Part shown: in pieces, positions 26,926 to 63,952 of the stretch | How positions within the stretch are numbered: position 1 is the stretch's first letter | How the letters are laid out: each line of letters begins with the position of its first letter | Source of the DNA: an uncultured Ignavibacteriales bacterium | GTDB taxonomy: Bacteria > Zixibacteria > MSB-5A5 > GN15 > FEB-12 | Length of the DNA: 64,000 nucleotides | NCBI GenBank assembly: GCA_964627305.1 | Contig: CAZVHP010000001.1 | Span: 269,792-333,791, forward strand | Reading direction: 5' to 3' | Notes under the pieces: model-generated | Seen by the model: only the letters and a program-made list of their open reading frames with translations | What the model was told of the DNA's origin: nothing | Databases searched by the model: none | Translations under genes and position numbers: made by a program

Positions 26926-26928
26926 CTG

Positions 26929-38952: not shown

Positions 38953-38972
38953 CAGCCTGAGGGGGTGACCTG

Positions 38973-40379: not shown

Positions 40380-40415
40380 AGACTTCCGGAGGTCTTTGTT
40401 GCCAGTCACAATGAA

Positions 40416-40450
40416 GGCGGGCTCCTGCGTTCACAGGACCCGCCTTTCGT
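40416..40450 (+). terminator. Rho-independent terminator in the convergent gap
   Basis: GGCGGGCTCCTG-CGTTCA-CAGGACCCGCC (one bulge) followed by TTTCGT. Confidence 0.6.
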
Positions 40451-40485
40451 CATGTTATCGCGAAACTCGGCCGGCCTCCACTCGC

Positions 40486-43277: not shown

Positions 43278-43490
43278 ACGACCTCTCTTCAGATAACAAT
43301 GACAGGTCCCACACCATCAGCTCACAATGTAGACCGCTCCAGGCCCGCTGACAAGTGCAATACGCTAAATCCTTTGCTAATGAACTTTGCAGTGCTATAT
43401 TGCCCTCAGAAACATACGCCGGTGTCCGGTGTCCGGTCTGTGGTCACCGAATCGGCCCCAAAACCCCCGTACTTGCGCAAGCCGAGGAAT

Positions 43491-45647: not shown

Positions 45648-45964
45648 AGAGGTGGTACTCAGCGACAAGTGCGGTCCACGAACCTGAACCGATCCTGCGA
45701 ACTAAAGTACTGGTGTTTTGTGGTTCGTTCCGTATATTGTACAAGATATACAGCAAACAGATTACTGATTACTATGTGTTGGCCTTGCTTGAACCGCACC
45801 CAACACCGCCGCTCGCACACCCCTCACGTTCGTGTTGCTCTTGCTTCGGCAGGATCTGATGAATGCGTAGCGAGCGGATCACCGGTAAACAAACGGACAG
45901 CCGAGCCGACATCATTGAAACACCGATGCCCTTCGCCACGGCTGGTTACCAAAGGAGATGAGAC

Positions 45965-48142: not shown

Positions 48143-48195
48143 TACGCGGCAGGTACGATCACATAAGATATTGACTACCAGTAGTCATGCGCTCA

Positions 48196-48227
48196 GCGGC
48201 CGATGGTTCATCAGAATCATCGGCCGC
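48196..48227 (+). terminator. Strong hairpin after the second C10 gene (possible terminator)
   Basis: GCGGCCGATG-(12 nt, partly paired)-CATCGGCCGC perfect 10-bp stem. The downstream CCGCCTTTACAG is only weakly T-rich. Confidence 0.4.
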
Positions 48228-48361
48228 CCGCCTTTACAGACAACCTGCCCCGAATCTGCTCTACGGGCTTGCCTGCCGCCGATTTGCGGTGTACTATGAC
48301 CACTTCACATGTTGCCGCAATGGCGATGCCCTGTTAAGCAAGAAACAAGGGAGAGCAATCC

Positions 48362-51300
48362 GTGACTGTCCGCACCGCGATTTCCTCAGCCATCTTCATC
48401 TGTATCCTGATCCTCGCCTCGGCTGCCTTCACCGCCGCCGATGAAATCCTGTACGCCCGATACCCGGTCCTGTCTCCGGATAACCAGACCATCGCCTTTA
48501 CCTGGCAGGGCGACATATGGGCTGTTCCCGCAGGTGGGGGAGAGGCAACCCGCCTGACGGTCCATGAGGCCGAGGACATCAGACCGTACTACTCACCCGA
48601 CGGACGCTGGCTCATGTTCTCCTCGCGGCGCTACAACAACTACGATGTCTTCATCATACCCGCCACAGGCGGCTCGGCCAAACGCCTGACTGTTCATTCC
48701 TCCGACGACTTCGGCTCCGGCTGGACCCCCGGCAGCGACAGCGTCATCTTTACCTCGCATCGCAACTCCCGTCGCGATATCTACGCCGTCTCCATCGAGG
48801 GCGGAACTCCGGTCGGACTGGCCACCACCCCGTGGGAACACCTGTACGGCGGTCGCATCTCCGGCGATGGCACCAGGCTGCTGTTCGCCAGCGGCTCCGG
48901 CCTGTCTCGTTGGTGGCGACGCGATTTGCGTACGGCTATGGTCGCCGATCTTTACGTTCAGGATCGCACCGTCACGCCGTTCACCTCCACGCGACTAACC
49001 AATCACGGCGGTCACGACCTGTGGCCGGTCCTCAACTGGGAGACCGATGATGTCTACTTCGTCTCCTGCCGCGGCGACTGGGCGCAGGTGTTCCGAACGG
49101 ATTTGTCCGGCCTTGAGGCGACTCCCATCACCAGCTTTGACGGCGATGGCGTCCAGTGGCTGAACAGCAATCCCCAGGGAACCCAGCTCGTGTTTGAACA
49201 GGGTTTCAAGATCTGGCATCTGGACCCGTCGCTTCCCGCTCTCAGGTCCGTGCCCATTCGCATCGCCACCGATGAGCGAACGAACCTCATCGAACACAAG
49301 CGCCTCACCGAAGATGTCGAGTGGTTCCAGTTGTCTCCTGATGGTCGGAAGATCGTCGCCGTCGTTCACGGTGAACTCTATCTCCTGCCTGCCGAGGACC
49401 CCCGGCTCGCCCGCCGTCTGACAGAGACATCTGCACGAGAACGCTTCCCTGTCTGGGGGCCGGACTCGCGCACCATCTACTATGCCTCCGACCGCAATGG
49501 CAACTACGACATCTTCGCTCTTGATGCCACTACCGGCGAGGAACGCCAGCTCACCCGTGACAGTGTCGACGAAACCAAGCCGTTGGTGTCTCCCGATGGT
49601 CGCTGGCTGGTCTTCTATCGCGGCCTCAGGCAGATCAGTCGCTACGATCTGGCCAAGGACAGGGAGTCCGTATGGATCGAAGGACCCTTCCTTGACGGCG
49701 GTGTAGCAATGACTATGGAATACGCCTGGTCACCAGATTCCAAATGGCTCACGTACACAATGGGGGGCCCCACCTTCGAGTCCAATACCTATGCCGCTGA
49801 CTTCGAGAACAACCGGTACAACCTGAGTCTGTTTGTCGACTGGAACTACCGTCCGCTCTTCTCGCCCCGGGGCGATTATGTGTATTTCACCTCCAACAAT
49901 CGTTGGGATCGCGGCATCTACCGCGTGCACCTCCAGCCCCGCCCAATCGAGTTCGACGAAGCCGCCATTGACAGCCTGTTCGTGGAGACCGAGAAGCATA
50001 AGGCGAAGGGCAACGACCGCGGCCCGGACAGGGACAGCCTCCAGGCTGCACCTTTCGAAGTCACCATGGACACCAGTCGCATTGACCTGCGCCGCGAGAA
50101 GATGGTTCGCCTCGATGCCCCCGGCGAGTCTCCTGTCGTCACCCCCGACGGCAAACAGCTTCTGTTCGTCGCTCCGGTCCTTGGCAAACCCGAGATATGG
50201 TCGGTCAGGATCGACGAGGACGATCCGAACCTCACCCAGATCACGCGTTCGGGCAAAGCCAAGACACAGTTGCAGGTGTCGCCGGACGGCAAGCGAGTCT
50301 TCTACCTCCAGAGCGGCAACATCCTGAGCTGCGAGATCGAATCTGCCAAATGTGAAAGCCTGCCGCTTTGCGCCGAGCTTGAGGTCAACACCATCGAGAA
50401 CAACCGGCAGAAGTTCCGCGAAGGCTGGCAGATGCTCAACAGCTATTTCTATGACACGACTTTCCACGGCACCAACTGGGACGGCGTCCGGGCCAGGTAT
50501 CAACCGGTCGTGGACCACATCCGCTCCGAGGAGGAGTTCCGCAATCTCTTCATGGAACTGATGGGCGAACTGCGCGCCTCTCACCTGCACATCTACTCCC
50601 GTGAACCCGGCCCTGCACCGGCCGTGCGCACCGGCTGTCTCGGGGTCGACTGGGATTACGGCGCCCTGCGAGACGAGGGCATGCTTCGAATCGGAACTGT
50701 CCTGCCGTCTTCCGCCGCCGCTCGTGCCGGCCTCAAACCGGGCCAGGTTCTGCTCGCAGTGAACGAGACACCGTTGGCCACAACGACCAACGTTCATGAA
50801 CTGCTCGCCGGCACAACCGGACGCCGGGTGACTGTCACCGTGTCGGACAAACCCGGAGGCAAGACCATGCAGGTCGAACTCAAACCGGAGTCTGAAGGTG
50901 CAGAGAACAACCATCGCTACGAGGCGTGGATAGTGCGCAACCGTGCCATCGTCGACTCGCTTTCCGGCGGTCGCCTGGCCTATCTTCACATTCGCAGCAT
51001 GAACCAGCCCGCTTTGGAGCGCTTCGAGCAGGAACTGGTCAACTTGGCCGAAGACAAGCTTGGTGCCATCATCGATGTCCGCTTTAACGGCGGCGGCTGG
51101 ACAGCCGTGCATATTCTGGGCACCCTTATCAAATCACCATATATTATGCGTTCCTTCCGCGGCGAACCGCCAACATCAGAGAACAAGATGCGTTCCAAGG
51201 CATGGGAACGCCCCCTCGCGCTGCTGATCAACAGCGCCTCCGGATCCAACGCCGAGATCTTTGCCGAAGGGTTTCGCAAACTCGCACTCGGCCCGGTCAT

Positions 51301-51535
51301 CGGCACACATACCAGCGGTGCCGTCATCGGCACCAGCTCGTATGAGCTGATCGACGGCACGACTATCCGACGGCCATCATGGGGAGCCTTCACTACCGAC
51401 ATGGTAGACACAGACTTAACCCCTCGCCAACCGGATGTCGTGGTAGAGATGCTGCCCGATGATTACATTAACGAACGCGACCCGCAACTGACCCGCGCCG
51501 TCCGAGAGCTGATCGACGAACTGGACCGCCGATGA
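48362..51535 (+). CDS. Second tricorn-protease homolog (S41B), exported
   Basis: AAGGGAGAG upstream of GTG 48362. Signal-like AISSAIFICILILASAAFTA. RYPVLSPDNQTIAFTWQGDIWAVPAGGGEATRLT, TolB-like repeats and an S41 C-terminal domain parallel to the first copy. Confidence 0.85.
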   Translation: MTVRTAISSAIFICILILASAAFTAADEILYARYPVLSPDNQTIAFTWQGDIWAVPAGGGEATRLTVHEAEDIRPYYSPDGRWLMFSSRRYNNYDVFIIPATGGSAKRLTVHSSDDFGSGWTPGSDSVIFTSHRNSRRDIYAVSIEGGTPVGLATTPWEHLYGGRISGDGTRLLFASGSGLSRWWRRDLRTAMVADLYVQDRTVTPFTSTRLTNHGGHDLWPVLNWETDDVYFVSCRGDWAQVFRTDLSGLEATPITSFDGDGVQWLNSNPQGTQLVFEQGFKIWHLDPSLPALRSVPIRIATDERTNLIEHKRLTEDVEWFQLSPDGRKIVAVVHGELYLLPAEDPRLARRLTETSARERFPVWGPDSRTIYYASDRNGNYDIFALDATTGEERQLTRDSVDETKPLVSPDGRWLVFYRGLRQISRYDLAKDRESVWIEGPFLDGGVAMTMEYAWSPDSKWLTYTMGGPTFESNTYAADFENNRYNLSLFVDWNYRPLFSPRGDYVYFTSNNRWDRGIYRVHLQPRPIEFDEAAIDSLFVETEKHKAKGNDRGPDRDSLQAAPFEVTMDTSRIDLRREKMVRLDAPGESPVVTPDGKQLLFVAPVLGKPEIWSVRIDEDDPNLTQITRSGKAKTQLQVSPDGKRVFYLQSGNILSCEIESAKCESLPLCAELEVNTIENNRQKFREGWQMLNSYFYDTTFHGTNWDGVRARYQPVVDHIRSEEEFRNLFMELMGELRASHLHIYSREPGPAPAVRTGCLGVDWDYGALRDEGMLRIGTVLPSSAAARAGLKPGQVLLAVNETPLATTTNVHELLAGTTGRRVTVTVSDKPGGKTMQVELKPESEGAENNHRYEAWIVRNRAIVDSLSGGRLAYLHIRSMNQPALERFEQELVNLAEDKLGAIIDVRFNGGGWTAVHILGTLIKSPYIMRSFRGEPPTSENKMRSKAWERPLALLINSASGSNAEIFAEGFRKLALGPVIGTHTSGAVIGTSSYELIDGTTIRRPSWGAFTTDMVDTDLTPRQPDVVVEMLPDDYINERDPQLTRAVRELIDELDRR

Positions 51536-51602: not shown

Positions 51603-51637
51603 AAGCACTTGACAAAGTGCTTGCAAGACTGTTAATT
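51603..51637 (+). promoter_or_regulatory. Candidate qmoA promoter with a perfect 8+4+8 palindrome over the -35 element
   Basis: AAGCACTT-GACA-AAGTGCTT (51603-51622) embeds TTGACA (51609-51614). A 17-nt spacer leads to TTAATT (51632-51637). Confidence 0.4.
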
Positions 51638-51648
51638 GGCCGGAAAGT

Positions 51649-51666
51649 TTGTTACGAACTTCACAA
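51649..51666 (+). promoter_or_regulatory. Rex/CRP-FNR-type inverted repeat upstream of qmoA (imperfect)
   Basis: TTGTTAC-GAAC-TTCACAA. The right half is perfect and the left half has 2 mismatches against TTGTGAA. It ends 72 nt before the qmoA ATG. Confidence 0.5.
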
Positions 51667-51737
51667 GCGACTTATGACTTGAGCATACTAACACAATCGC
51701 CCACAATTAGTTGGGCGTTGGCGATAAGGAGATAGAT

Positions 51738-53018
51738 ATGGCCAAGTACGAACCGGGCGACGATGTCATCCGCGCGGAGACACTCGTAGTCGGGGGCGGC
51801 ATCGCCGGTATGACAACGGCCATCGAGACCGCTGAGGTCGGGCGCGACGTTATCCTCTTGGAACGTCAGCCCACTTTGGACGGCCGCGTTGCCTCGTCGT
51901 ATCAGTATTTCCCCAAACTGTGCCCCCCTACCTGCGGTATCGAGATCAATCTCAAGAGAATCCGCATCAACCCGCATATCCGGGTACTCACTCTGGCCGA
52001 GATCGAGTCAGTCAGCGGCTCTCCGGGCGATCTGGAGGTCAGAATCACTCTGAAGCCTCGATATGTGAATGAGCGTTGCACCTGCTGTGGCGAGTGCGCC
52101 AAGGTCTGCGAGATAGAGCGCGACAACGACTTCAACTATGGTCTGGATAAGACCAAAGCCATATACCTGCCGCACATGATGGCTTACCCGCAACGCTATG
52201 TCGTCGACCCGAGATTCGTCAACGACCCGGCCATGAAGAAATGTGTCGAGGCCTGCGAATACGGTGCCATCGAACTGGACATGCAGCCGCGCACAATCAC
52301 CGCCAAAGTCGGCGCCATCGTCTGGGCAACCGGTTGGAAGCCATACGACGCCACCAAACTGGACAATCTCGGATTCGGCAAGATCAAGAACGTCATTACC
52401 AACGTTATGATGGAGCGCCTGGCTGCGCCCAACGGTCCCACCGAGGGCAAGATCCTCCGCCCGTCCGATCAGAAGGAAGTCAAGTCCGTCGGTTTCGTGC
52501 AGTGTGCCGGCTCTCGCGATGAGAACCACCTGCCGTATTGCTCCGCCATCTGTTGTCTTGCCTCGATGAAAGAGGCAACTTACGTACGAGAGCAGTATCC
52601 CGACGCCAAAGTCCATATCTTCTACATCGATGTGCGCTCCCCGGGGCGCATGGAGGACTTCTACGTCAAACGTCAGGAAGATGACAAGATCCACTTCCAC
52701 CGTGGCAAAGTAGCCCGCATAACTGAAAACACCGCCAACGGAAACCCCATTCTGGAAGCCGAGAATACCCTGACCGGTGAGATCACCAAGACCGAAGTGG
52801 AGATGGCTGTTCTCGCGACAGGAATGGTCCCAAACAACATCGACGTCAAGCCGCCGCTCGATACACCGCTGGACGACTTCGGGTTTATTGTCCAGGGTTT
52901 CGAGCAAAACGGCGTCATCGGTGCCGGTGTTGCTGTCAGGCCATTCGATGTCTCGCAATCGGTACAGGACGGCACCGGGGCTGCCCTGAAGGCTATGAAC
53001 GTCGGGGCAAGGAGGTAA
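51738..53018 (+). CDS. qmoA: QmoA (HdrA-like flavoprotein of the quinone-interacting membrane-bound oxidoreductase complex)
   Basis: AAGGAG upstream of ATG 51738. VVGGGIAGMTTAIE, YFPKLCPPTCGIEINLKRI and PRYVNERCTCCGECAKVC closely match the QmoA pattern known from Desulfovibrio. Confidence 0.85.
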   Translation: MAKYEPGDDVIRAETLVVGGGIAGMTTAIETAEVGRDVILLERQPTLDGRVASSYQYFPKLCPPTCGIEINLKRIRINPHIRVLTLAEIESVSGSPGDLEVRITLKPRYVNERCTCCGECAKVCEIERDNDFNYGLDKTKAIYLPHMMAYPQRYVVDPRFVNDPAMKKCVEACEYGAIELDMQPRTITAKVGAIVWATGWKPYDATKLDNLGFGKIKNVITNVMMERLAAPNGPTEGKILRPSDQKEVKSVGFVQCAGSRDENHLPYCSAICCLASMKEATYVREQYPDAKVHIFYIDVRSPGRMEDFYVKRQEDDKIHFHRGKVARITENTANGNPILEAENTLTGEITKTEVEMAVLATGMVPNNIDVKPPLDTPLDDFGFIVQGFEQNGVIGAGVAVRPFDVSQSVQDGTGAALKAMNVGARR

Positions 53019-53021
53019 GCG

Positions 53022-55301
53022 ATGGATCCCAAAGTAGGAATCTACATATGCAAGGGTTGTGACATCGCTAAGGCCGTCGATGTCGACAAGCTTGTCGAGG
53101 AGGCCGGCAAGGGCAAGAACGTCGCCGTGTGCAAGGCACAGGATGTGATGTGCGCCCGTGAAGCGGTGGAACAGATTAACAAGGATATCGAGTCCGAAGG
53201 TCTCAACAGAGTTGTCATCGGCGCCTGCTCGCCGCGCGTATTCCCTGAAGTCTTCGATTTCGGACCGAAGGTGCTTACCGAGCGTGTCTCGCTGCGCGAG
53301 CACGTTGCCTGGTCTCACGAAACCGACGATGAAGAAGACATGGAAATGCTGGCCCAGGACTATATGATGATGGGTCTGGCCAAAGTCAATCACACTGAAC
53401 CGCCCGAGCCGTTCATCGCCGAGACCTCCAAAGATGTCCTCGTCGTCGGCGGTGGTGTCGCCGGCATGACGGCCGCTCGTGCCATTGCCGACGCCGGCTA
53501 CAAGGTGCACCTGGTCGAGAAGGAAGACCATCTCGGCGGCTGGGCTGCCAGGTATGCGAAGGTCTTCCCGAAACAGCCTCCGTATGATTCGCTTGAGGAC
53601 TTCGATGTCGACTCGCTCATCAAGACCGTTGAATCCCACGACAAGATCACGGTCCACAAATCCTCTGCCGTCAAGAAGAGCAAAGGACAACCGGGCGAGT
53701 TCATGGTTGAACTGAGCAATGGCTCCGCCCCCGAACCGTTTACAGTCGGAGCCATCATTCTCGCGTCCGGCTGGAAACCTTACGATCCGGCCAAACTGGG
53801 CAAGTGGGGATACGGCATTTCGCCGGACGTCATCACCAACGTCCAGATGGAAGACATGATGAAAAGCGGCGCCATCAAGCGCCCGTCAGATGGCAAAGCC
53901 CCCGAAAGCGTCGCGTTCATCCAGTGTGCCGGTTCGCGCGACAAGGACCACCTCCCGTATTGTTCGGCCGTGTGCTGCCGGGTGTCGCTCAAACAGGCGA
54001 AATACGTGCGTGAAGCATACCCCGATGCCAAGGTCTACATCATCTACAAGGACCTCCGTTCGCCACAGCAGTATGAGTTGTTCTATCAGAACGCACAGGC
54101 CGATGAAGGCATTTTTTTCACCAAAGGCGAAATCGGTGAGGTAACCTCCAACGGCGATGGTCGGGTGACTATCAATGTCTCCGAAACGCTGCTTGGTGAG
54201 GATATCCAGGTCAAGGCCGATATGGTCGTGCTGGCGGCTGGTATGGTGCCAACCACCAGGGTCGAGGGCGTCAAGGGTGATCTCGACGTCATGGCCGAGG
54301 TGGCCGAGATGCTCGATGCCGGTGAGATTCCCAAGGAGGAAGAGAAGGAAGAGGCACTCGAGGACGGCAAAAAAGCCGCTGCCGGAGCCGAAAAGGGCGC
54401 CAAAATCCTGAACCTGTCCTATCGCCAGGGAACGGACCTGCCCACTCTCAAGTACGGTTTCCCGGACTCCCACTTCATTTGTTTCCCCTATGAAACCCGC
54501 CGCACTGCCGTTTACGCGGTCGGAGGTGTTCGTGCCCCTATCGACATTGCCGGCACCATCAACGATGCCTATGGAGCCGGGCTGAAAGCCATTCAGGCCG
54601 TGGAATCCATCGCCAGGGGAGCCGCCGTGCATCCTCGCGCGGGCGATCTGTCGTATCCGGAGTTCTTCCTGCAGCGTTGCACCCAATGCAAGCGATGTAC
54701 CGAAGAATGTCCGTTTGGAGCTCTCGATGAAGATGACAAGGGTACGCCCAAGCCGAACCCCTTCCGGTGCCGTCGTTGCGGCGTCTGCATGGGGGCCTGC
54801 CCGGAGCGTATTGTCACCTTCAAAGACTACAACATCAGCATGGTCTCCAATATGATCCGGTCGATCTCCATGCCCGATGAATTCGACGAGAAACCGCGAA
54901 TACTCGCTTTCGTGTGCGAGAACGATGCCATGCCCGCACTGGAGATGGCTTCCTCATTGCGCATGAAGTACAACGAGATGATTCGCATCATCCCGTTGCG
55001 CTGCCTGGGCTCCATGAACACCATCTGGATCAGCGATGCCCTTTCCAACGGTTTCGATGGTGTCATCCTGCTGGGCTGCCGCAAGGGAGAGGACTACCAA
55101 TGCCACTTCGTCCGCGGCTCGGAACTCGCCCAGTACCGGATGGAGAATGTCAGGGAGAAACTCAAACAACTCGTGCTTGAGGAAGAACGGGTCGAGGTCC
55201 ACGAAGTCGCCATCTCCGAGTTTTACAAAATCCCGAAGATCTTCAATGACTTCCTGGAAACCATCGAGTCGGTCGGCCTGAATCCCTATAAAGGCATGTA
55301 G
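53022..55301 (+). CDS. qmoB: QmoB (HdrA-like flavoprotein with ferredoxin and C-terminal MvhD-like domains)
   Basis: 759 aa. N-terminal VGIYICKGCDIA, VVGGGVAGMTAA, CTQCKRCTEECPFGAL / CRRCGVCMGACP, and C-terminal ILAFVCENDA...LRCLGS...GVILLGCRKGEDYQCHF (MvhD-like). Confidence 0.85.
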   Translation: MDPKVGIYICKGCDIAKAVDVDKLVEEAGKGKNVAVCKAQDVMCAREAVEQINKDIESEGLNRVVIGACSPRVFPEVFDFGPKVLTERVSLREHVAWSHETDDEEDMEMLAQDYMMMGLAKVNHTEPPEPFIAETSKDVLVVGGGVAGMTAARAIADAGYKVHLVEKEDHLGGWAARYAKVFPKQPPYDSLEDFDVDSLIKTVESHDKITVHKSSAVKKSKGQPGEFMVELSNGSAPEPFTVGAIILASGWKPYDPAKLGKWGYGISPDVITNVQMEDMMKSGAIKRPSDGKAPESVAFIQCAGSRDKDHLPYCSAVCCRVSLKQAKYVREAYPDAKVYIIYKDLRSPQQYELFYQNAQADEGIFFTKGEIGEVTSNGDGRVTINVSETLLGEDIQVKADMVVLAAGMVPTTRVEGVKGDLDVMAEVAEMLDAGEIPKEEEKEEALEDGKKAAAGAEKGAKILNLSYRQGTDLPTLKYGFPDSHFICFPYETRRTAVYAVGGVRAPIDIAGTINDAYGAGLKAIQAVESIARGAAVHPRAGDLSYPEFFLQRCTQCKRCTEECPFGALDEDDKGTPKPNPFRCRRCGVCMGACPERIVTFKDYNISMVSNMIRSISMPDEFDEKPRILAFVCENDAMPALEMASSLRMKYNEMIRIIPLRCLGSMNTIWISDALSNGFDGVILLGCRKGEDYQCHFVRGSELAQYRMENVREKLKQLVLEEERVEVHEVAISEFYKIPKIFNDFLETIESVGLNPYKGM

Positions 55302-55331
55302 GCAAGACAATAACAACTGCATCTGCGAATC

Positions 55332-55363
55332 AGAACCCCCAAACTTGGGGGTTCTTTTCATTT
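55332..55363 (+). terminator. Rho-independent terminator after qmoB
   Basis: AGAACCCCC-AAACTT-GGGGGTTCT followed by TTTCATTT. Confidence 0.8.
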
Positions 55364-55596
55364 GGCCCTGTGCGCCCATATCCAGTCACTCAAGGTCTCA
55401 GATTCTGGGGGAATGTAGGGTTTATATGTAAAATCAACCTGGACACAAACACGCACCAGAGCCTTGAAATCACATTCACTTACAATGTTAAACTCTTTAA
55501 TGACAATGCTTTTAATCGTGAAGCTCGCCAACTTGACACTACCCCGTGAGTAACTGCCTTGTGACTGGAGTTAAGGAAATTTTTCACATTTTGCTC

Positions 55597-55625
55597 TTGA
55601 CTCCGAAGGCCAAAAGCATTATCAA
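55597..55625 (+). promoter_or_regulatory. Candidate distal dsrA promoter
   Basis: TTGACT (55597-55602), 17-nt spacer, TATCAA (55620-55625), inside a roughly 430-nt AT-rich spacer. Confidence 0.35.
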
Positions 55626-55701
55626 AACAAATGATCAAATAGTGAAAAAAATAACGAGTGCGCCGGACAAAACTTACTAATCTTGTAAGGAATACCGAAC
55701 T

Positions 55702-55719
55702 TTGTGACGATAATCACAA
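55702..55719 (+). promoter_or_regulatory. Rex/CRP-FNR-type inverted repeat upstream of dsrA
   Basis: TTGTGA-CGATAA-TCACAA, with perfect 6-bp arms. It ends 71 nt before the dsrA ATG. Confidence 0.6.
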
Positions 55720-55789
55720 GCAATTCGTTGGAGTGAAACAGGCAATTAGAAGATTTTCAACGATTTACTATCCGAACTGAGGAGTTGCA

Positions 55790-56986
55790 ATGGCTGACAA
55801 TCTACCCAAAACCCCCAAGCTCGACGAGCTTGAAAAGGGCGGTTGGCCGAGCTTCGTGAAAGAGATCAAGATGGCCGCCAAGGGAAGCCCTATGGCGGCA
55901 GATCTGCTTGGCCAATTGGAGCAGTCCTTCGAGGAAAGAATTGGCCACTGGAAGCACGGCGGTATCGTCGGTGTTATGGGCTATGGCGGCGGTGTAATCG
56001 GACGTTACTCTGACCTGCCGGACAAGTGGCCCAATATCTCACATTTCCACACCATGCGTATCAACCAGCCCGCAGGGTGGTACTATACCTCTGATGCCCT
56101 GCGCAAGATCTGTGACATCTGGGAGGAGCACGGCTCCGGTCTGACCAACATGCACGGCTCCACCGGCGACATCATCCTGCTCGGTACCCGTACCGAACAA
56201 CTTGAACCGGTCTTCGAGAAGCTTGGTAAGATCGATTTCGATATCGGTGGCTCCGGCTCCGATCTTCGCACCCCTTCCTGTTGCTGTGGCAAATCCCGCT
56301 GTGAGTGGGCCTGCTATGACACCATGCAGTCCTGCTACGATTTGACTATGCACTACCAGGACGAGTTGCACCGTCCGGCCTTCCCGTACAAGTTCAAGTT
56401 CAAGTTCTCCGGCTGTCCCAACGACTGCGTAGCCTCCATCGCGCGTGCCGATATGTCGTTCATCGGGACCTGGCGTGACGCTATCCGCATCGATCAGGAT
56501 GCGGTGCGCGAGTACGTTGACCGTGGACTGAACATTCAGGAGGACGTCATCAGCCGCTGCCCCGGCAACTGCATGGAGTTCGACGGCAAGGAACTGCATA
56601 TCGAAAACAGCTACTGCAAGCGCTGTATGCACTGCATTAACGTGATGCCGAAGGCGCTCCGTCCCGGTACCGACACCGGCGCCACCATTCTCATTGGTTC
56701 CAAGGCCCCCATCATCGAGGGCGCCCTGCTGTCCTCCGTCCTCATCCCGTTCTACAAGATGGAACCTCCGTACGAGGACCTCAAGGAACTGATCGAGGAG
56801 ATCTGGGACGTCTGGTGTGAAGAGGGCAAGAACCGCGAGCGCATCGGAGAATTCATCCAGCGCGTCGGCATGGGGAACTTCCTCGATGCCATCGGGATGG
56901 AACCCGTTCCTGAGATGGTCGCCCATCCGCGCGAGAATCCCTATGTCTTCTTCGAGGAAGACGAGGACGATGAGGACGAGGGCTGA
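55790..56986 (+). CDS. dsrA: Dissimilatory sulfite reductase alpha subunit
   Basis: GAGGAG 5 nt upstream of the [23 protein letters not shown], siroheme/[4Fe-4S] Cys motifs ([26 protein letters not shown]) and ferredoxin insert CPGNCMEF...[12 protein letters not shown]. Confidence 0.92.
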
Positions 56987-57048
56987 TTTGGCCTCCCCAG
57001 CGTCAAAGATGAGAAACGACAATAACGTTACACTAATAGAGGTTTGAC

Positions 57049-58128
57049 ATGGCAGATGTTCAGGAAAGAAGAACTGACTTTGGCCCGCCTCACTTCCAGC
57101 AGTTTCTGCCGCCGGTGATCAAGGAAAACTACGGCAAGTGGAAATACCATGAGATTCTCAAGCCGGGTGTCATGGTCCATGTGTCGGAAACCGGCGCCAA
57201 ACTGTGGACCGTGCGCGCGGCCTCGGGTCGTCTGATCAGTATCAACAAGATTCGAACCTTCTGTGACCTGGCTGACAAGTACTGCAAGGGCTTCTTCCGT
57301 TTCACCAGCCGTCACAATGTCGAGTTCCTGCTCGACTCGGACGAGAAGCTCGATGACCTTATCGCCGATCTCAAGGCCATCGGCCATCCCATCGGCGGCA
57401 TCGGCAATTCCATCACCGCTATCGTACATACTCAGGGCTGGGTCCACTGCCATTCAGCGGCGACCGACGCCTCCGGTATCGTCAAGGCTGTCATGGATGA
57501 CCTGATGGAGTACTTCGAAAACATGAAGCTGCCGGGCAAGCTGCGTATTGCTCTGGCCTGCTGTCTGAATATGTGCGGTGCCGTGCACTGCTCCGATATC
57601 GCGATTCTTGGTATTCACCGCAAGCCGCCCCGGATCGACCACAGCCGCCTGAACAAGCTGTGCGAAATCCCCAACGTCAGCGCTTCCTGCCCGACCGCAG
57701 CCATCCGACCGGCTACTGTCGACGGCAATCCCTCTGTGGAAGTGATCGACGAGCGCTGCATGTATTGCGCCAACTGCTTCACTGTCTGTCCGGCTATGCC
57801 CTTGAACGATCCGGACAACGACGGTGTCTCCATCTGGGTTGGTGGCAAGGTGTCGAATGCCCGCTGCGAGCCTATGTTCTCCAAGCTGGCCATCCCCTAC
57901 CTGCCCAACAATCCGCCGCGTTGGCCCGAGGTAACATCTGCCATCCGTAATCTCGTGGAGTTGTGGGCCAAGAACGCCCGCAAGTACGAGCGGATGGGAG
58001 AATGGATTAACCGTATCGGTTGGCCGAGATTCTTCAAAATGGCCGGTATTGAATTCACCAAGATGCACATCGATGACTTCAAACATGCCGGTCTGACCTT
58101 CAAGCGGTCAACCCATCTAACCTTCTAA
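57049..58128 (+). CDS. dsrB: Dissimilatory sulfite reductase beta subunit
   Basis: [36 protein letters not shown], and ferredoxin insert CPTAAIRP...[13 protein letters not shown]. Confidence 0.92.
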
Positions 58129-58138
58129 GGGGTTTGTA

Positions 58139-58384
58139 ATGAAGCCTGTTGAAGAAGTAGCAGAGGCTATGTTCGAGATGGTCAAGGATGCCCAGGCCGT
58201 CAAGAAGAAACTGAAACCCATGGATCTGACCAAGGCCATGATTGCGACCTATGGCGATGAAGTGGACAAGAAGCTCTGCAAGGAGGCTATCAAGCAATTG
58301 ATTAACTCCGGACGATGCGTGTACACGTATTTCGGCGGAAGCTTTATCGAGATTCCGCACCGGGAGGGTGCAGCCAACGACTAA
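58139..58384 (+). CDS. dsrD: DsrD
   Basis: 81-aa winged-helix-like protein directly after dsrB. The C-terminal half (KEAIKQLINSGRCVYTYFGGSFIEI) resembles the DsrD pattern. Confidence 0.75.
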   Translation: MKPVEEVAEAMFEMVKDAQAVKKKLKPMDLTKAMIATYGDEVDKKLCKEAIKQLINSGRCVYTYFGGSFIEIPHREGAAND

Positions 58385-58408
58385 GGTCCTCAAGCGGAGG
58401 TTGCGGCA

Positions 58409-59869
58409 ATGGTGGTGAAAGCACCGCGAGTGGTTGTTGCCGGGCTGTCGGGAGACAGCGGCAAGACCATTGTCAGTCTGAGTCTGATTACCGGACTGCG
58501 CGAACGCGGCTTGGCAGTCGCCCCATTCAAGAAAGGCCCGGACTACATTGACCCCGCCTGGCTTGCCTGGGCTGCCAAGGCTACCTGCCGTAACCTGGAC
58601 ACCTTCCTGGTCGATGAGTCGGTGGTGGCGCACACGTTCTCCCGCCACGCTGCTGCTTCTGAGATAGCGGTCATCGAAGGAAACAGAGGCCTGTTCGACG
58701 GTCGCGACGTTTCCGGATCGCATAGTACTGCGGGGCTTGCAAGGCTCTTGCAAGCCCCGGTTGTATTGGTGGTCAATGCCACCAAGACAACCCGTACTGC
58801 CGCCGCCCTTGTCCATGGTTGTATGACCTTCGAAGACAACGTGAAGATTGCCGGTGTTGTCCTCAACCGGATCGCCGGCACTCGACACGAAAGCGTCACC
58901 CGCCAGGCCATCGAGTCTGCCTGCCGGATTCCCGTCCTGGGTGTCATTCCCAAACTCAGGGAATCACGTTCCCTGATTCCCGGACGTCACCTCGGGCTTG
59001 TACCGCCAACCGAATTGGATGAACAAGCGGCTGTGAGACAACGTATGACTGAGATCGCCAACAGCTACCTCGACCTCGACCGGATCCAGGCCATTGCCGC
59101 CCAAGCCCCGCCCCTGGGAGCTGCTGATCCGGTGAGTCAATCCGTCACCGCCGATCCGGTAAGAGTTGGTGTCTTTCGCGATTCTGTCTTCACCTTCTAC
59201 TACCCGGAGAACCTTGAAGGCCTTCAGCGCGAGGGAGCAACGATTGTTCCAGTCTCATCACTTGAGGATAGTTGTCTGCCGCCGATCGATGCCCTCTACA
59301 TTGGTGGAGGCTTCCCTGAGACGCACGCCGAGCGACTGATTGCCAATCGATCCCTGATGGCCTCCGTCCGTGAGGCAGCCGAGCGCGGACTGCCCATCTA
59401 TGCCGAATGCGGTGGCCTGATCTATCTGGCGCGGTCGGTGACATGGAATCAACAGCGCTACGATATGGCCGGGGTCTTTCCCATTGATCTGATTATGACC
59501 TCCAGGCCTGCCGGTCACGGTTACGTGGAGGCCGAGGTGGACAGCCCCAACCCCTTCTTCCCGATCGGCACCCGCATCAGAGGTCACGAGTTTCACTACT
59601 CCACTCCCGCCGACAAGCCTCATGCGGCTACGTGCCTTGCAATGAAGTCAGGAGTCGGCTTTGCGGACAAGCGCGATGGGTTGATCGCCGGCAGCGTCCT
59701 CGCTGCCTACAGCCACATCCACGCCGAAAGCGTCCCCTCATGGGCCGAAGCCGTGGTCTGTCGAGCGCGCGAGTACCGTAAGGCGGCAGCAAGGTCTGCG
59801 TCCGGTCAGACAAACGGTGAAAGCGATACAGAAGAGAGTGATTTGGACTCCAATAGGGTTTGTGTGTAA
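58409..59869 (+). CDS. dsrN: DsrN (cobyrinate a,c-diamide synthase homolog, siroheme amidase)
   Basis: CbiA/CobB-type N-terminal ATPase (VVVAGLSGDSGKT) and a C-terminal glutamine amidotransferase domain (YAECGGLIYL), in the position typical of dsrN. Confidence 0.8.
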   Translation: MVVKAPRVVVAGLSGDSGKTIVSLSLITGLRERGLAVAPFKKGPDYIDPAWLAWAAKATCRNLDTFLVDESVVAHTFSRHAAASEIAVIEGNRGLFDGRDVSGSHSTAGLARLLQAPVVLVVNATKTTRTAAALVHGCMTFEDNVKIAGVVLNRIAGTRHESVTRQAIESACRIPVLGVIPKLRESRSLIPGRHLGLVPPTELDEQAAVRQRMTEIANSYLDLDRIQAIAAQAPPLGAADPVSQSVTADPVRVGVFRDSVFTFYYPENLEGLQREGATIVPVSSLEDSCLPPIDALYIGGGFPETHAERLIANRSLMASVREAAERGLPIYAECGGLIYLARSVTWNQQRYDMAGVFPIDLIMTSRPAGHGYVEAEVDSPNPFFPIGTRIRGHEFHYSTPADKPHAATCLAMKSGVGFADKRDGLIAGSVLAAYSHIHAESVPSWAEAVVCRAREYRKAAARSASGQTNGESDTEESDLDSNRVCV

Positions 59870-59997
59870 TAATTAGAGGATATAGTAGAGAGGCTGGTTG
59901 ACTTTTCGGCCCCGACGCCAACATTCTCGGTGATCAGGAGGATGGCCGAACACGCAGCCGAGCCGTATGACGCGATACTCAACGAAAGAGAATCATC

Positions 59998-61683
59998 ATG
60001 GGTCTGTTGAACAAGAAAAAGAAAAAAGGCGGCCTGAGCAGGGTATCCGGCGCCTCCGGCAGCTCGGGCGTGGAGTCCTCGCCGCTTCGGCCGCAATTTG
60101 TGGAGAAGAAAGCTCCCTGCGGCGTTGGCTGTCCGAATCACAATCACATCCGCAAGATGCTCATGACCATTCACAAGGCCGAGGATCTCAAGAAGAGCTA
60201 CGATCAGGCCTTCGAAGAAGCCTTTCATATCTTCCTCGAAACCACTCCGTTCCCCAGCGTTTGCGGACGCGTCTGCCCGCACCCGTGTGAGTCCGAGTGC
60301 AACCGCGGCGGTAAGGAAGGTGCTGTCGGAATCAACAGTGTCGAGCGCTTCATAGGTGACTATGGACTCGAGAAAGGTCTGAAGCCTAAGATGCTCGCCG
60401 ACCAGAAGCGCGACAACAAAGTCGCCATCGTCGGTTCCGGCCCCGGCGGTATGTCGGCTGCCTACCACCTCGCCCGCAGAGGTTACCAGGTAACCGTCTA
60501 TGAGGCCTTCCCGAAATCCGGCGGCATGCTCCGCTATGGCATCCCCAACTACCGCTTGCCGCAGGATATCCTTGACAAGGAGAACCAGCGCATTCTCGAT
60601 ATGGGCGTCAAACTGAAACTGAACACCAGTGTCGGCAAAGATGTCTCATACGAGCAACTGCAGAAGGACAATGATGCCGTCTTCGTCGCCATTGGCGCCC
60701 ACAAGGGTCGCTTCCTGCGCGTCGAAGGGGAGGAGGCCGAGAATGTCTTCACCGGCACTGACTTCCTGCACCGGGTCAACCGTGGCGAGGCGGTCGATGT
60801 CGGCGATCATGTGGTCGTAATCGGTGGCGGTGACACTGCTATTGACGCCGCCCGCATTGCCCGCCGTCTTGGCGCTAAGGCAACTATCCTGTATCGCCGC
60901 ACACGCAACGAGATGCCGGCTATCGATGAAGAAATCGTCGGAGCAGAGGAAGAAGGCGTCAGAATTGACCTGCTGGCCGCTCCGCTGGAGGTCTACCAGA
61001 CCAACGGTCGGGCCACCGGCATGAAGTGTCAGCGCATGCAGCTTGGTGAACCCGATTCATCCGGCCGTCGTCGGCCGGTACCCATTGAGGGGGACACCTT
61101 CGACATGGAGTTCTCCACCCTTGTGGCTGCCATCAGCCAGGAACCGGACTTCACCGGCTGCGAGAATCTCATTGAAGGCAGAGACTGGATCAAGGTCAAC
61201 GACAAGTACATGACCAAAGTCGAACGCGTCTTCTCCGGTGGCGATGATGTCAACCTCGGGCTGGTGATCGATGCTATCTTTCACGGCCGCATGGCCGCAG
61301 CCCATATCCACGAGATGATCTCCGGAGAAACGCTGCCCACACCGCCCGATCGCAAAATCGTGCGGCTGGAAAACATGTATCATGCCTACTATGAGGAGAA
61401 GCAGCCGATTCGTGCTACCACGATCCCGGTGGAAGAGCGCTTCGCTGACATCGATCGCGAGATCATGCCAACCATGACTCAGGATCAGGCTGTCGGCGAG
61501 GCCAAACGGTGTATGAGCTGCGGCATGTGCTTTGATTGCGGAAGCTGCTGGAGCCTGTGCCAGGATCAGGCCGTCATCAAGCCCCAGCAGAAGATGGGCG
61601 AGTACAAGTTCAAACTCGAGTTCTGCAACGGGTGCAAGAAATGCGCCGAGAACTGCCCCTGCGGATATATTGAGATGCACTAA
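59998..61683 (+). CDS. dsrL: DsrL-like NAD(P)H oxidoreductase (GltD-family core plus C-terminal 2x[4Fe-4S] ferredoxin domain)
   Basis: CGRVCPHPCESEC, VAIVGSGPGGMSAA, VIGGGDTAIDAA, GEPDSSGRRRP. C-terminal CMSCGMCFDCGSCWSLC and CNGCKKCAENCPC. Located between dsrN and dsrC. Confidence 0.7.
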   Translation: MGLLNKKKKKGGLSRVSGASGSSGVESSPLRPQFVEKKAPCGVGCPNHNHIRKMLMTIHKAEDLKKSYDQAFEEAFHIFLETTPFPSVCGRVCPHPCESECNRGGKEGAVGINSVERFIGDYGLEKGLKPKMLADQKRDNKVAIVGSGPGGMSAAYHLARRGYQVTVYEAFPKSGGMLRYGIPNYRLPQDILDKENQRILDMGVKLKLNTSVGKDVSYEQLQKDNDAVFVAIGAHKGRFLRVEGEEAENVFTGTDFLHRVNRGEAVDVGDHVVVIGGGDTAIDAARIARRLGAKATILYRRTRNEMPAIDEEIVGAEEEGVRIDLLAAPLEVYQTNGRATGMKCQRMQLGEPDSSGRRRPVPIEGDTFDMEFSTLVAAISQEPDFTGCENLIEGRDWIKVNDKYMTKVERVFSGGDDVNLGLVIDAIFHGRMAAAHIHEMISGETLPTPPDRKIVRLENMYHAYYEEKQPIRATTIPVEERFADIDREIMPTMTQDQAVGEAKRCMSCGMCFDCGSCWSLCQDQAVIKPQQKMGEYKFKLEFCNGCKKCAENCPCGYIEMH

Positions 61684-61755
61684 CTGCCATGGAATGCGAA
61701 TACGATACAGTGAATAAATGTGACCTAACAACTACTTGCTTACGGAGGATCTATC

Positions 61756-62073
61756 ATGCCGACATTTACGCATGGTGATATCAGCATCGACGTTGATGAA
61801 GACGGATTCATGGAAGAGCCGGATCAGTGGAACGAAGAGGTTGCCAAAGCCCTCGCAACCACTGAAGGTGTCGACGAAATGACCGAAGAGCACTGGAAAC
61901 TGGTGAACTACCTGCGCGAGTACTACCTCAAATTCGGTATTGCTCCCATGATTCGCAAGCTCTGCAAAGAGACCGGCTTCCCGCTCAAGAAGGTCTATGA
62001 GCTGTTCCCGTCGGGACCGGCCAAGGGCGCCTGCAAAGTCGCCGGGCTGGCCAAGCCGACCGGTTGTGTGTGA
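61756..62073 (+). CDS. dsrC: DsrC (TusE/DsrC family) with both conserved C-terminal cysteines
   Basis: GGAGGA upstream of the ATG. 105 aa ending ...GPAKGACKVAGLAKPTGCV, with the penultimate Cys and a second Cys 11 residues upstream. Confidence 0.92.
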   Translation: MPTFTHGDISIDVDEDGFMEEPDQWNEEVAKALATTEGVDEMTEEHWKLVNYLREYYLKFGIAPMIRKLCKETGFPLKKVYELFPSGPAKGACKVAGLAKPTGCV

Positions 62074-62092
62074 TCGCATATTGCCGGACTCC

Positions 62093-62125
62093 AGGCCGAG
62101 AGACTTCAGCCTCTCGGCCTGCTTT
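62093..62125 (+). terminator. Perfect 10-bp hairpin after dsrC (likely terminator or processing site)
   Basis: AGGCCGAGAG-ACTTCAGC-CTCTCGGCCT followed by GCTTTC (weak T-tract). Confidence 0.5.
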
Positions 62126-62233
62126 CGGGCAACAAACAGGACGGTTTTTATCCCGTCAGTCGATCCTGAGTGCCAGACTAGCCCTGCAAATCAGGTATCA
62201 TGGACAAGCAGGTGAAAAATCGCCAAATATAGG

Positions 62234-62262
62234 TTGACCTCGGTCAGCCGGGATTTTACTAT
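62234..62262 (+). promoter_or_regulatory. Sigma70-like promoter for dsrT-dsrM-dsrK
   Basis: TTGACC (62234-62239), 17-nt spacer, TACTAT (62257-62262). Confidence 0.5.
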
Positions 62263-62299
62263 TGTAGCAGTTGCCGAGCCGCTTTTTTTTGACCACCAC

Positions 62300-62317
62300 T
62301 TGTGAAGGTATTCACAA
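62300..62317 (+). promoter_or_regulatory. Perfect Rex-type operator TTGTGAA-N4-TTCACAA upstream of dsrT
   Basis: TTGTGAAGGTATTCACAA, about 30-48 nt downstream of the predicted -10 and 41 nt before the dsrT ATG. Confidence 0.65.
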
Positions 62318-62357: not shown

Positions 62358-62912
62358 ATGTTGCTTAAGCAGCAGATACTTCAGCATCGCGAGGCCATTA
62401 TCGACAGCTGGCGACAGGCAGTTTTCGGTACATACCCCTCCGAGTCGGCCACATTTCTGACCTCACGACACAATCGGTTTGCCAACCCCGTCGGTCAGAC
62501 AATTCATGACAATGTCGAGCAGCTCTTTGACCAGGTTTCCGGGTCCTTCGAACCCGCTGCCGCGACCGTTGCCCTCGATGCTATCATCCGCATTCGGGCT
62601 GTGCAGGAGTTCTCCGCCGCCGAGGCAATTCAGTTCATATTCGAGATCAAGAACATCGTCCGGCAATTCGTCGGCCTGTCGCAGAACGGACACCCCGACC
62701 GGGCAGTCGTCGAGGACCTGCGCAGTTTCGACCAGCGCGTCGACAACCTGGCTCTGCTCGGATTCGACCTGTTCATGCGCTGCCGTGAGAAGCTGTACGA
62801 AATCCGTACGAACGAAACTCGCCGCCGCCACGAGAAGCTCGTCGAGCGATTGGTGGCCAGGGATCAGAATCAAAACGGCGATGCAGACACGTCGCCTGAT
62901 GAAGACAAGTAA
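62358..62912 (+). CDS. dsrT: DsrT (RsbRD N-terminal-domain protein)
   Basis: GAGGGT 4 nt upstream of ATG 62358. HREAIIDSWRQAVFGTYPSESATFLTSRHNRFANPVGQTI matches the RsbRD_N/DsrT pattern. It sits directly upstream of dsrM. Confidence 0.6.
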   Translation: MLLKQQILQHREAIIDSWRQAVFGTYPSESATFLTSRHNRFANPVGQTIHDNVEQLFDQVSGSFEPAAATVALDAIIRIRAVQEFSAAEAIQFIFEIKNIVRQFVGLSQNGHPDRAVVEDLRSFDQRVDNLALLGFDLFMRCREKLYEIRTNETRRRHEKLVERLVARDQNQNGDADTSPDEDK

Positions 62913-62950: not shown

Positions 62951-63952
62951 ATGAAACTGGTGCTGTCTGTGTTAGCTATCATCGTGCTGGCACTGGTGCC
63001 GTGGGTGGGAGTCAGTACTATGGGCCTGCACACTGTATTCGGTGTGGTCCTGCCGTATCTGGCCATCGCCATCTTCCTGATCGGCTTCGTGTGGCGGATT
63101 ATCGACTGGGCGCGATCGCCGGTACCGTTCCGCATCCCCACCACCTGTGGTCAGCAGAAATCGCACGCCTGGATCAAGCAGGACAGACTGGAGAATCCCG
63201 ACGGCTTCTGGAGTACTGCCGGAAGGATGCTCCTTGAAGTCCTGTTCTTCCGGTCGTTGTTCCGCAACACCAAGGCCGACATCAAGGAAGGATCAAAGCT
63301 GGTCTACGGATCAAGCAAGTGGCTGTGGGCAATCGGCCTGGCGTTCCACTATGCCTTTCTCGTCATCTTCCTGCGACACTTCAAGTACTTCGCCGAACCG
63401 ACTCCCGACTGGGTGCTCGCGCTCCAGTGGGTCGACAGCTTCTGGCAGGTCGGTGTACCGTTGATCTACATGACTGATCTTATCCTTGTTGGTGCTGTGT
63501 CACTGCTGTTCATCCGACGCCTCTGGAATCCGCAGGTGCGCTACATCTCGCTCGCAGCCGACTACTTCCCGTTGCTGCTCATCCTCGGAATCGGCATCAG
63601 CGGCATATGGATGCGCTATTTCAGCAAGACCGATCTGCTTGCCGTCAAACAGCTCGGTACCGCACTGATCAGCTTCAGCCCGGCCGGGGCCGATGTGCTC
63701 AGCAGTATCGGCGTGGTGTTTTTCATACATCTGTTTCTGGTATGCTGTCTGTTCATCTACTTCCCGTTCAGCAAGCTGATGCACCTTGGTGGCGTCTTCC
63801 TCAGCCCGACCAGAAACCTGGCCAACAATAACCGGGTCAAACGGCACATCAACCCGTGGAACCCTGAGGTCAAGTTTCACACCTATGACGAGTACGAGGA
63901 TGAGTTCAGGGATGTGATGAAGGCTGCCGGACTTCCGGTAGAGAAGGAGTGA
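62951..63952 (+). CDS. dsrM: DsrM (NarI-like membrane cytochrome b)
   Basis: Polytopic membrane protein with WARSPVPFRIPTTCGQQKS after TM1, and NarI/HmeC-like length and helix pattern. It precedes dsrK. Confidence 0.8.
   Translation: MKLVLSVLAIIVLALVPWVGVSTMGLHTVFGVVLPYLAIAIFLIGFVWRIIDWARSPVPFRIPTTCGQQKSHAWIKQDRLENPDGFWSTAGRMLLEVLFFRSLFRNTKADIKEGSKLVYGSSKWLWAIGLAFHYAFLVIFLRHFKYFAEPTPDWVLALQWVDSFWQVGVPLIYMTDLILVGAVSLLFIRRLWNPQVRYISLAADYFPLLLILGIGISGIWMRYFSKTDLLAVKQLGTALISFSPAGADVLSSIGVVFFIHLFLVCCLFIYFPFSKLMHLGGVFLSPTRNLANNNRVKRHINPWNPEVKFHTYDEYEDEFRDVMKAAGLPVEKE

Follow-up and report, generated by a model that had tools for sequence, protein, structure and literature searches.

How are the sulfate-reduction genes of the Zixibacteria controlled? 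In these bacteria, as in adjoining uncultured lineages, genes of the dsr, apr, qmo and sat groups are present and, to our knowledge, nothing is known about the control of these genes or about the direction in which DsrL-containing clusters operate; nor do we know of any regulation of sulfate reduction previously described in this phylum. Here we analysed a 64-kb stretch (the window) of contig CAZVHP010000001.1 from an uncultured bacterium of this type, in which three 18-bp palindromes resembling TTGTGA-N6-TCACAA lie ahead of qmoA, dsrA and dsrT. These palindromes very probably belong to a conserved operator regulon, which is predicted to span the entire dissimilatory sulfate-reduction pathway of a Zixibacteria-type bacterium.

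Operators in the window and their conservation

A first-pass annotation of this DNA had proposed that one palindromic operator, of Rex or CRP/FNR type, governs the sulfur-energy operons, and had located three copies, all of which were found where it placed them. The copies are listed here with the predicted promoters and with the additional elements discussed below.

51609-51637, plus strand: qmoA promoter predicted from sequence (-35 TTGACA at 51609-51614, 17-bp spacer, -10 TTAATT at 51632-51637)
51649-51666, no strand assigned: qmoA operator TTGTTACGAACTTCACAA, 22.8 bits; 11 nt past the -10 (about +5 to +22) and 72 nt before the qmoA ATG
51698-51717, plus strand: stem-loop CGCCCACAATTAGTTGGGCG in the qmoA 5' untranslated region (UTR), about 30 nt past the operator and 8 nt before the Shine-Dalgarno sequence
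55572-55589, no strand assigned: O-up TAAGGAAATTTTTCACAT, with a motif-like right half; ends 7 nt before the dsrA -35, centred near -51
55597-55625, plus strand: predicted dsrA promoter (-35 TTGACT at 55597-55602, 17-bp spacer, -10 TATCAA at 55620-55625)
55640-55657, no strand assigned: O-TSS TAGTGAAAAAAATAACGA, the fourth-best matrix score (13.6); starts 14 nt past the -10 (about +9 to +26)
55702-55719, no strand assigned: dsrA O-down TTGTGACGATAATCACAA, 22.2 bits; 76 nt past the -10 and 71 nt before the dsrA ATG
62234-62262, plus strand: predicted dsrT promoter (-35 TTGACC at 62234-62239, 17-bp spacer, -10 TACTAT at 62257-62262)
62300-62317, no strand assigned: dsrT operator TTGTGAAGGTATTCACAA, 23.2 bits; 37 nt past the -10 and 41 nt before the dsrT ATG

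The start codons behind the sites are at 51738 (qmoA), 55790 (dsrA) and 62358 (dsrT), and the annotated distances of 72 and 71 nt from site to codon at qmoA and dsrA were measured as the same. Likewise, the copy at 62300 is indeed a perfect match to the Rex operator TTGTGAA-N4-TTCACAA, and the copy at 55702 does have perfect 6-bp arms, with two positions deviating from that longer consensus. For the copy at 51649, two left-half mismatches had been reported; this count holds against the 7-nt Rex half-site, but there is just one mismatch in the 6+6 core.

At 58% G+C, exact TTGTGA-N6-TCACAA is expected 0.0017 times in the window and occurs twice, while six matches with at most two mismatches were observed (1.8 expected). 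A weight-matrix scan of the window gave the three sites 22-23 bits, the 55640 site 13.6 and everything else no more than 8.8, and a match of at least 20 bits was present in none of 200 resampled windows. The single further match with at most one mismatch, at 47143, scores 7.9 bits and lies within the open reading frame (ORF) of a C10 peptidase; as an operator it was rejected and taken as chance. The annotation, which had found the motif by eye nowhere else in the 64 kb, overlooked the weaker 55640 site and the 55572 element. Judged by sequence comparison, the three palindromes are non-random and conserved in both sequence and position.

Conservation is clearest upstream of qmoA. We compared 43 loci from genome and metagenome scans that encode a QmoA at least 63% identical (related loci compared with the window are labelled L001-L168), with a cut-off of at least 17 bits for a site. 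Such a site lies upstream of qmoA in 27 of the 43 loci, and 19 of the 27 end 64-77 nt ahead of the start codon, mostly 70-77 nt. Relatives without the motif include the lineages of L092, L095, L101 and L108. Twelve core positions are invariant or nearly so within flanking intergenic DNA that is unalignable, and a promoter-like cTTGACA-16/18-T/A-rich hexamer arrangement recurs upstream. The relatives' sites, which include TTGTTAAAATTTTCACAA and TTGTGAAAATTTTAACAA, always have one half reading TTGTGAA/TTCACAA, and the other half reads TTGTTA/TAACAA; TGTTA (or TAACA) replaces TGTGA in one half of 21 of the 22 distinct qmoA operators. The two orientations of these half-sites may stem from a few inherited events, and their anti-correlation should not be over-read. 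The fifth palindrome pair is broken in the same proportion of distinct sites (21/22), and pairing falls below all 500 shuffles, which rules out an RNA hairpin kept by selection and speaks for a protein able to accept either G or T at this position. The conservation of the qmoA site thus supports the proposal of a shared operator, and phylogenetic footprinting indicates that the sites are functional.

The stem-loop in the qmoA 5' UTR is a separate element. It is modestly supported in relatives, where it occupies the same place as a 4-pair consensus helix with at least one compensatory change per pair. It may be an mRNA-stabilising or translational element, and may also account for the fixed distance between operator and ATG.

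The architecture of the dsrA promoter appears from these alignments to be composed of four parts common to the window and 24 related loci, with the O-TSS part present in ten. An arrangement like cTTGAC(T/A/G)-17-TAnAAT is kept in all 25 loci. The left half of O-up is a conserved, non-consensus sequence that is invariant in the relatives, where the whole element reads aGATAATGAAwTTTTTCACAw in 24 of 24 anchored loci; in L038 the element recurs, reversed, just ahead of the sat promoter, 5 nt from its -35. The same regulator may or may not bind O-up. An O-TSS-type site lies 10-14 nt past the dsrA -10 in ten loci, the window included, with counterparts such as TAGTGAAAnnnnTAACA 10-11 nt past the -10 in L002, L006, L007, L088, L094, L096, L099, L104 and L152. 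O-down starts 62 bp beyond O-TSS and is matched in position by L010 alone, where TTGTGAAAAAAATAACTA stands 76 nt past the -10 and 72 nt from the ATG.

The dsrT copy is, in this comparison, the least conserved of the three. Counterparts were found in 2 of 17 related loci, namely L090 (TTGTGAAATATGTAACAT, 38 nt before the ATG) and, weakly, L006; both have a long dsrC-dsrT spacer, a TTGAC promoter and the site 38-56 nt before the ATG. In most of the 17 loci the dsrC-dsrT spacer is short and lacks both a site and a recognisable promoter, and L008, L088 and L152 have a long spacer, yet no site.

Extent of the regulon in related loci

The annotation had also pointed to sat, aprBA and nfn as genes that the motif might precede. 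In relatives it does occur upstream of sat and aprBA. L038 has a 25-bit site that begins 9 nt past the -10 of its sat-aprB-aprA promoter, and L020, a Zixibacteria metagenome-assembled genome (MAG), has one of 24.5 bits about 100 nt ahead of a divergent sat-aprB. Furthermore, four Zixibacteria-clade sat loci (L165-L168) that were fetched independently via Sat homologues, and that lie outside the training set of the matrix, all carry sites between sat and a divergent QmoC-like gene. In L165, L166 and L168 the sat site sits within the spacer and -10 of TTGACA-17-TACATT; the sites of L165-L168 also include a second one, whose distance from the sat ATG is 57-68 nt, and, towards the QmoC-like gene, tandem sites with a spacing of 21 bp. 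L090 has a site before dsrL too. The only clear non-sulfur target seen is in L001, a complete Zixibacteria chromosome, where TTGTTACATATTTCACAA (1179-1196) lies about 30 nt upstream of a glutamate dehydrogenase gene. The regulon in the related loci examined is otherwise almost wholly made up of sulfate-reduction genes.

A very similar motif, TTGTTACAAAATGCACAA, was found 5-7 nt past TTGACA-16-TATAAA in distant, Desulfobacterota-like sat-aprBA-qmoAB loci (QmoA about 60% identical), at the following positions.

L122, 136: upstream of sat
L135, 5609: upstream of sat
L138, 4419: upstream of sat
L155, 186: upstream of sat
L156, 5932: upstream of sat
L141, 2354: upstream of aprB

The presence of the motif at the sat promoters of such distant loci argues for a widespread regulator. 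The same control logic is thus to be seen in a second, distant lineage.

Across 2.36 Mb, 40 of the 44 matches of at least 19 bits fall within the 6.5% of sequence that lies no more than 350 nt ahead of the gene opening a sulfate-reduction operon, an enrichment to be read with the provisos that the matrix was partly trained on the counted sites and that the loci are mutually related. A matrix scan of about 81 kb of the source contig, a metagenome contig of 522,657 bp in ENA, gave no further site and, in particular, none before nfnAB.

A pathway-wide conserved operator would be a concrete handle on this metabolism, with one protein and one signal acting on about five operons, and the motif could help to define the limits of the regulon in MAGs and to interpret metatranscriptomes. 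The picture of how such regulation works is left unchanged. The kind is already known from the Rex/HcpR control of sulfate reduction in Desulfovibrio; what the sites suggest is that this regulatory logic reaches beyond the Desulfobacterota.

Regulation and the identity of the regulator

The predicted promoters at the sites have near-consensus -35 boxes and 16-18 bp spacers, so that an activator should not be needed. Sites start 9-14 nt past the predicted -10 at qmoA (in the window and in L005, L014, L083, L084, L099, L113 and L152), at dsrA O-TSS and at sat in L038, and 5-7 nt past it at the Desulfobacterota-like sat promoters. These positions, like those inside the spacer and -10 of sat, are where a repressor would exclude or block RNA polymerase, and we infer that the sign of regulation is repression. 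The repressor geometry noted earlier, with sites downstream of sigma70-like promoters, holds up against the predicted promoters in both the window and the relatives.

It is very unlikely that the same sites are instead class II or class I activator sites serving weak promoters just downstream. In the window the right half TTCACA does form, with an 18-bp spacer and CATACT, a promoter-like arrangement that puts the centre of the site near -39; loci differ in the spacing between upstream promoter and site but keep that between site and ATG; and in L094, L104 and L112 a -35 lies 6 nt downstream of the site. However, no -10-like hexamer is conserved across loci at the required distance downstream, and on this ground a class II promoter overlapping the qmoA site was ruled out. 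In addition, the dsrT ATG is just 41 nt past its site, which leaves no room, and the sat sites of L165, L166 and L168 are inside a consensus promoter. Activators of the CRP/FNR family are placed near -41.5 or -61.5 at promoters with a poor -35, whereas here the -35 boxes are TTGAC(A/T) and the sites lie after the -10, in the spacer or near -50. As CRP/FNR proteins are also able to repress, this placement leaves room for the family. Still less credible, and almost certainly wrong, is the idea that the palindromes are RNA hairpins of the 5' UTR or chance matches. Lying downstream of predicted promoters they would be transcribed, and a 6-bp stem with a 6-nt loop can be drawn, but there is no covariation and the pairing test at qmoA effectively refutes such a hairpin; chance is excluded by the exact-match expectation, the gap in matrix scores and the concentration of matches upstream of operons. 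An Rfam scan gave no RNA family that reached threshold.

The protein that reads the sites is, in our judgement, probably Rex, an NADH/NAD+-sensing repressor that would be encoded elsewhere in the genome, although both its identity and the sensed signal are things that we infer. Rex is favoured by the extended half-site, the tolerated G-to-T change, the identical set of targets and the motif at sat in a second, distant lineage. The operator is an 18-bp inverted repeat in which a TTGTTAA/TTAACAA variant is tolerated, as in Rex operators. Its central four positions are A/T-rich in nearly all relatives, where intergenic DNA is A/T-rich anyway, and read GGTA, GATA and GAAC in the window. As in Rex regulons, the targets belong to energy metabolism or are linked to NAD(H) (sat-aprBA, the qmoC-like gene, qmoAB, dsrAB-L-C, dsrT-MKJOP and the L001 glutamate dehydrogenase), and the operators overlap predicted promoters or transcription starts. 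Under this model, one dimeric helix-turn-helix repressor would bind TTGTGAA-N4-TTCACAA-like sites on or just past the -10 or transcription start of the sigma70-type promoters of qmoAB, dsrABD-N-L-C and dsrT-MKJOP and, in relatives, also of sat-aprBA, the qmoC-like gene and dsrL, and would block RNA polymerase. A rise in NADH/NAD+ brought about by electron donors would release NADH-bound Rex from the DNA and thereby derepress dissimilatory sulfate reduction in its entirety, all operons together, as an electron sink. If Rex is the regulator, derepression at high NADH/NAD+ would argue for such a role and hence for the reductive direction.

The closest known system is found in Desulfovibrio. The predicted Rex regulon there includes qmoABCD, sat, apsAB, dsrABD and dsrMKJOP; a rex mutant shows derepression of qmo and sat (PMC4045070). 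A passage of PMC7531388 citing Christensen 2015 states that sat of D. vulgaris is derepressed by rex deletion or by mutation of the site. The D. vulgaris sat and apsAB sites (TTGTaAAtTtTTTCACAA and TTGTtAAtTccaTCACAA) had earlier been ascribed to HcpR, with repression inferred from overlap of the site with the -10 (PMC545781). The Desulfovibrio Rex regulon (D. vulgaris DVU0916; D. alaskensis G20) resembles the one described here in the type of 18-bp palindrome, the full pathway as targets, operators overlapping the -10 or start site, and a one-sided degeneracy (TTGTtAA...TCACAA) (PMC545781 Table 10; PMC4045070; PMC7531388). It differs in that the host here is a Zixibacteria-like member of the FCB group rather than of the Desulfobacterota, that qmoAB is apart from qmoC, that dsrL and dsrT are within the cluster, that up to three elements are present at dsrA, and that sites at non-sulfur energy genes are absent from the window and source-contig sequence examined. 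Rex operators of Gram-positive bacteria and Thermotogae also agree with these sites in length, symmetry and both half-site variants, and perhaps in an A/T-rich centre: Rex of Staphylococcus aureus binds TTGTGAAW4TTCACAA (PMC2883068), and a TTGTTA/TAACAA variant is predicted for Thermoanaerobacterium (PMC5886521). The regulons of those groups, in contrast, cover genes of fermentation and respiration (adhE, ldh, hydrogenases, cyd, nuo), whereas the regulon here covers sulfate-reduction genes. Our literature search found no paper joining Zixibacteria with Rex.

Several results weigh against Rex, or against a simple form of the model. Neither the window nor about 17 kb of additional flank on the source contig nor about 2.4 Mb of related loci revealed a rex gene (PF06971 with PF02629). 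The nfnAB and pdh genes of the source contig have no site, although a broad Rex regulon might include both. At position 12 most qmoA sites have T, whereas the window's dsrA site and several sat sites have A or G. In about half of the relatives the qmoA operator is 54-72 nt downstream of the predicted -10 and this, together with three relatives in which it lies upstream of a -35, means that a single simple steric mechanism fails at some loci. Finally, the core TGTGA-N6-TCACA, present in both exact window sites, is the CRP/HcpR1 consensus, and the sites of Rex and HcpR1 have been stated to be identical (PMC5701242).

Searches for the gene of any regulator were likewise negative. No DNA-binding regulator emerged when essentially all ORFs of the window from 150 amino acids (aa) upwards were scanned against Pfam, the Pfam lists of the source-contig flank and related loci contain no PF00027, and the extra flank holds neither motif nor regulator gene. 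Tblastn with Rex of Thermus and B. subtilis and with CRP and FNR of E. coli, of which the CRP and FNR probes are insensitive, gave nothing credible in the window and 162 related loci. The Thermus probe is sound, being 89-92% identical to Thermus Rex proteins, and its best 120 matches in a large database were Deinococcota Rex proteins only. These Pfam and tblastn results agree with the annotation, which had seen no regulator gene in the window. When ORFs upstream of qmoA in 27 loci were clustered, no recurrent neighbour emerged; the lack of a conserved adjoining regulator gene fits a global regulator encoded elsewhere.

A CRP/FNR regulator of HcpR1 type, sensing NO, nitrite, oxygen or another acceptor-related signal and switching sulfate reduction off or on, seems to us unlikely, although the evidence is not all on one side. 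Besides the shared core, the local regulon looks specialised to sulfate reduction, with nfnAB and pdh lacking sites, and TTGTGAnnnnnnTCACAA, the very consensus that the annotation had used, was originally attributed to HcpR, which was predicted to repress sat and apsAB in Desulfovibrio (PMC545781). Against this, the longer Rex half-site agrees with the outer TT/AA, with A at position 7 and perhaps with the A/T-rich centre, and TGTTA half-sites occur in nearly all distinct qmoA operators. In E. coli CRP, the second G:C pair of TGTGA is a key specificity contact for the canonical protein. HcpR responds to nitrosative stress and is usually encoded beside hcp-frdX, and neither hcp nor hcpR is present in the sequence examined; nor did the insensitive tblastn probes reveal a CRP/FNR homologue. 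Thus, for all that the core consensus of Desulfovibrio HcpR/HcpR1 is identical (PMC5701242), the TGTTA half-sites and conserved outer TT/AA fit Rex better, and the Desulfovibrio sat site of the same type is described in the passage of PMC7531388 mentioned above as behaving as a Rex site. We think it more doubtful that the reader is a lineage-specific regulator of another or unknown family, dedicated to sulfate reduction and unresponsive to NADH. The almost exclusive restriction of the regulon to sulfate-reduction genes, the invariant non-consensus half of O-up, which hints at a second specificity, and the strict rule of one perfect and one variant half at qmoA would all suit such a protein. 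However, no conserved regulator gene adjoins the operons, a very similar motif lies just past the -10 of sat promoters in Desulfobacterota-like loci, and a strong site precedes the L001 glutamate dehydrogenase gene. A related and comparably improbable proposal is that the reader is neither Rex nor classical CRP/FNR, or is Rex with a second factor at the non-consensus half of O-up (at dsrA and sat), forming a dedicated multi-operator switch specific to Zixibacteria-type sulfate-reduction genes. With equally little likelihood, such a switch would comprise the three dsrA elements 62-68 bp apart, the tandem qmoC-like sites 21 bp apart and obligately half-degenerate qmoA operators. No current explanation fully accounts for three features, namely the several operators arrayed at dsrA, the composite element upstream and the pairing of one perfect with one variant half at qmoA.

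Gene context and neighbouring genes

Gene identities were assigned with NCBIfam and Pfam, and the operons behind the operators are as follows.

51738-53018, plus strand: qmoA, HdrA-like
53022-55301, plus strand: qmoB, HdrA-like
55332-55355: terminator-like hairpin after qmoB
55790-62073, plus strand: dsrA, dsrB, an 81-aa ORF in the DsrD position, dsrN-like, dsrL-like and dsrC
62094-62119: hairpin after dsrC
62358-62912, plus strand: dsrT
62951-63952, plus strand: dsrM

The dsrKJOP genes continue past the end of the window. The dsrN-like product is CobB-like, the dsrL-like product is of GltD type with a ferredoxin domain, and dsrT encodes an RsbRD_N domain. The closest DsrA sequences in the genome collection searched are 80-83% identical and come mainly from MAGs of Candidatus Zixiibacteriota or MAGs labelled Ignavibacteriales. 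The ORF in the DsrD position (58139-58384, 81 aa) has no Pfam match and is conserved in relatives, and a DsrL-type NAD(P)-binding iron-sulfur flavoprotein is encoded at 59998-61683. The dsr cluster therefore mixes markers usually used to call the reductive or the oxidative direction (the DsrD-position ORF and DsrL).

No qmoC follows qmoAB in the window. Elsewhere in Zixibacteria relatives, a QmoC-like gene (391-392 aa; Fer4_8, Fer4_17 and NarI-like) is divergent from sat-aprBA:

L165, 8248-9423: QmoC-like gene
L166, 7575-8750: QmoC-like gene
L168, 8115-9293: QmoC-like gene

Beyond dsrMKJOP (15140-21002 of L163, on the source contig; 504-6674 of L168) lie a rhodanese-fused pyridine-nucleotide disulfide oxidoreductase gene and then hemA, a CysG-like NAD_binding_7 gene, cobA/hemD and hemB. 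The last four form a siroheme supply set, and the whole order recurs in relatives.

After aprA, genes for an Ogr_Delta-like zinc-finger protein (73-94 aa) and a CxxCxxCC protein are present in four loci:

L165, 13791-14911: Ogr_Delta-like/CxxCxxCC region
L166, 13126-14240: Ogr_Delta-like/CxxCxxCC region
L168, 13880-14987: Ogr_Delta-like/CxxCxxCC region
L038, 8884-9954: Ogr_Delta-like/CxxCxxCC region

Homologues of the small Ogr_Delta-like protein were found by tblastn in about 45 loci from many lineages, several of them beside apr or qmo genes. It was considered as a lineage-specific regulator and rejected, as homologues stand beside apr/qmo in many lineages that lack the motif; it may be a conserved protein of 'QmoD' type.

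The other 50 kb of the window carries nfnAB, housekeeping genes, a pdh complex, an RND efflux pump, radical-SAM genes and a block of peptidases. The nfnAB-like genes are at the very start (6-2174), and the source-contig region upstream of them (L164, 6074-6436) is without the motif. The peptidase block (34666-51535), directly upstream of qmoA, encodes two tricorn-like proteases (1171 and 1057 aa), two C10 peptidases with PKD and dockerin domains, and a TldD/PmbA pair. On the minus strand at 22652-28308, radical-SAM enzymes, one with a B12-binding and one with a SPASM domain, are encoded beside an ABC transporter, as in peptide-modification systems, and a similar radical-SAM/SPASM/ABC set lies near sat in L165 (16299-20540).

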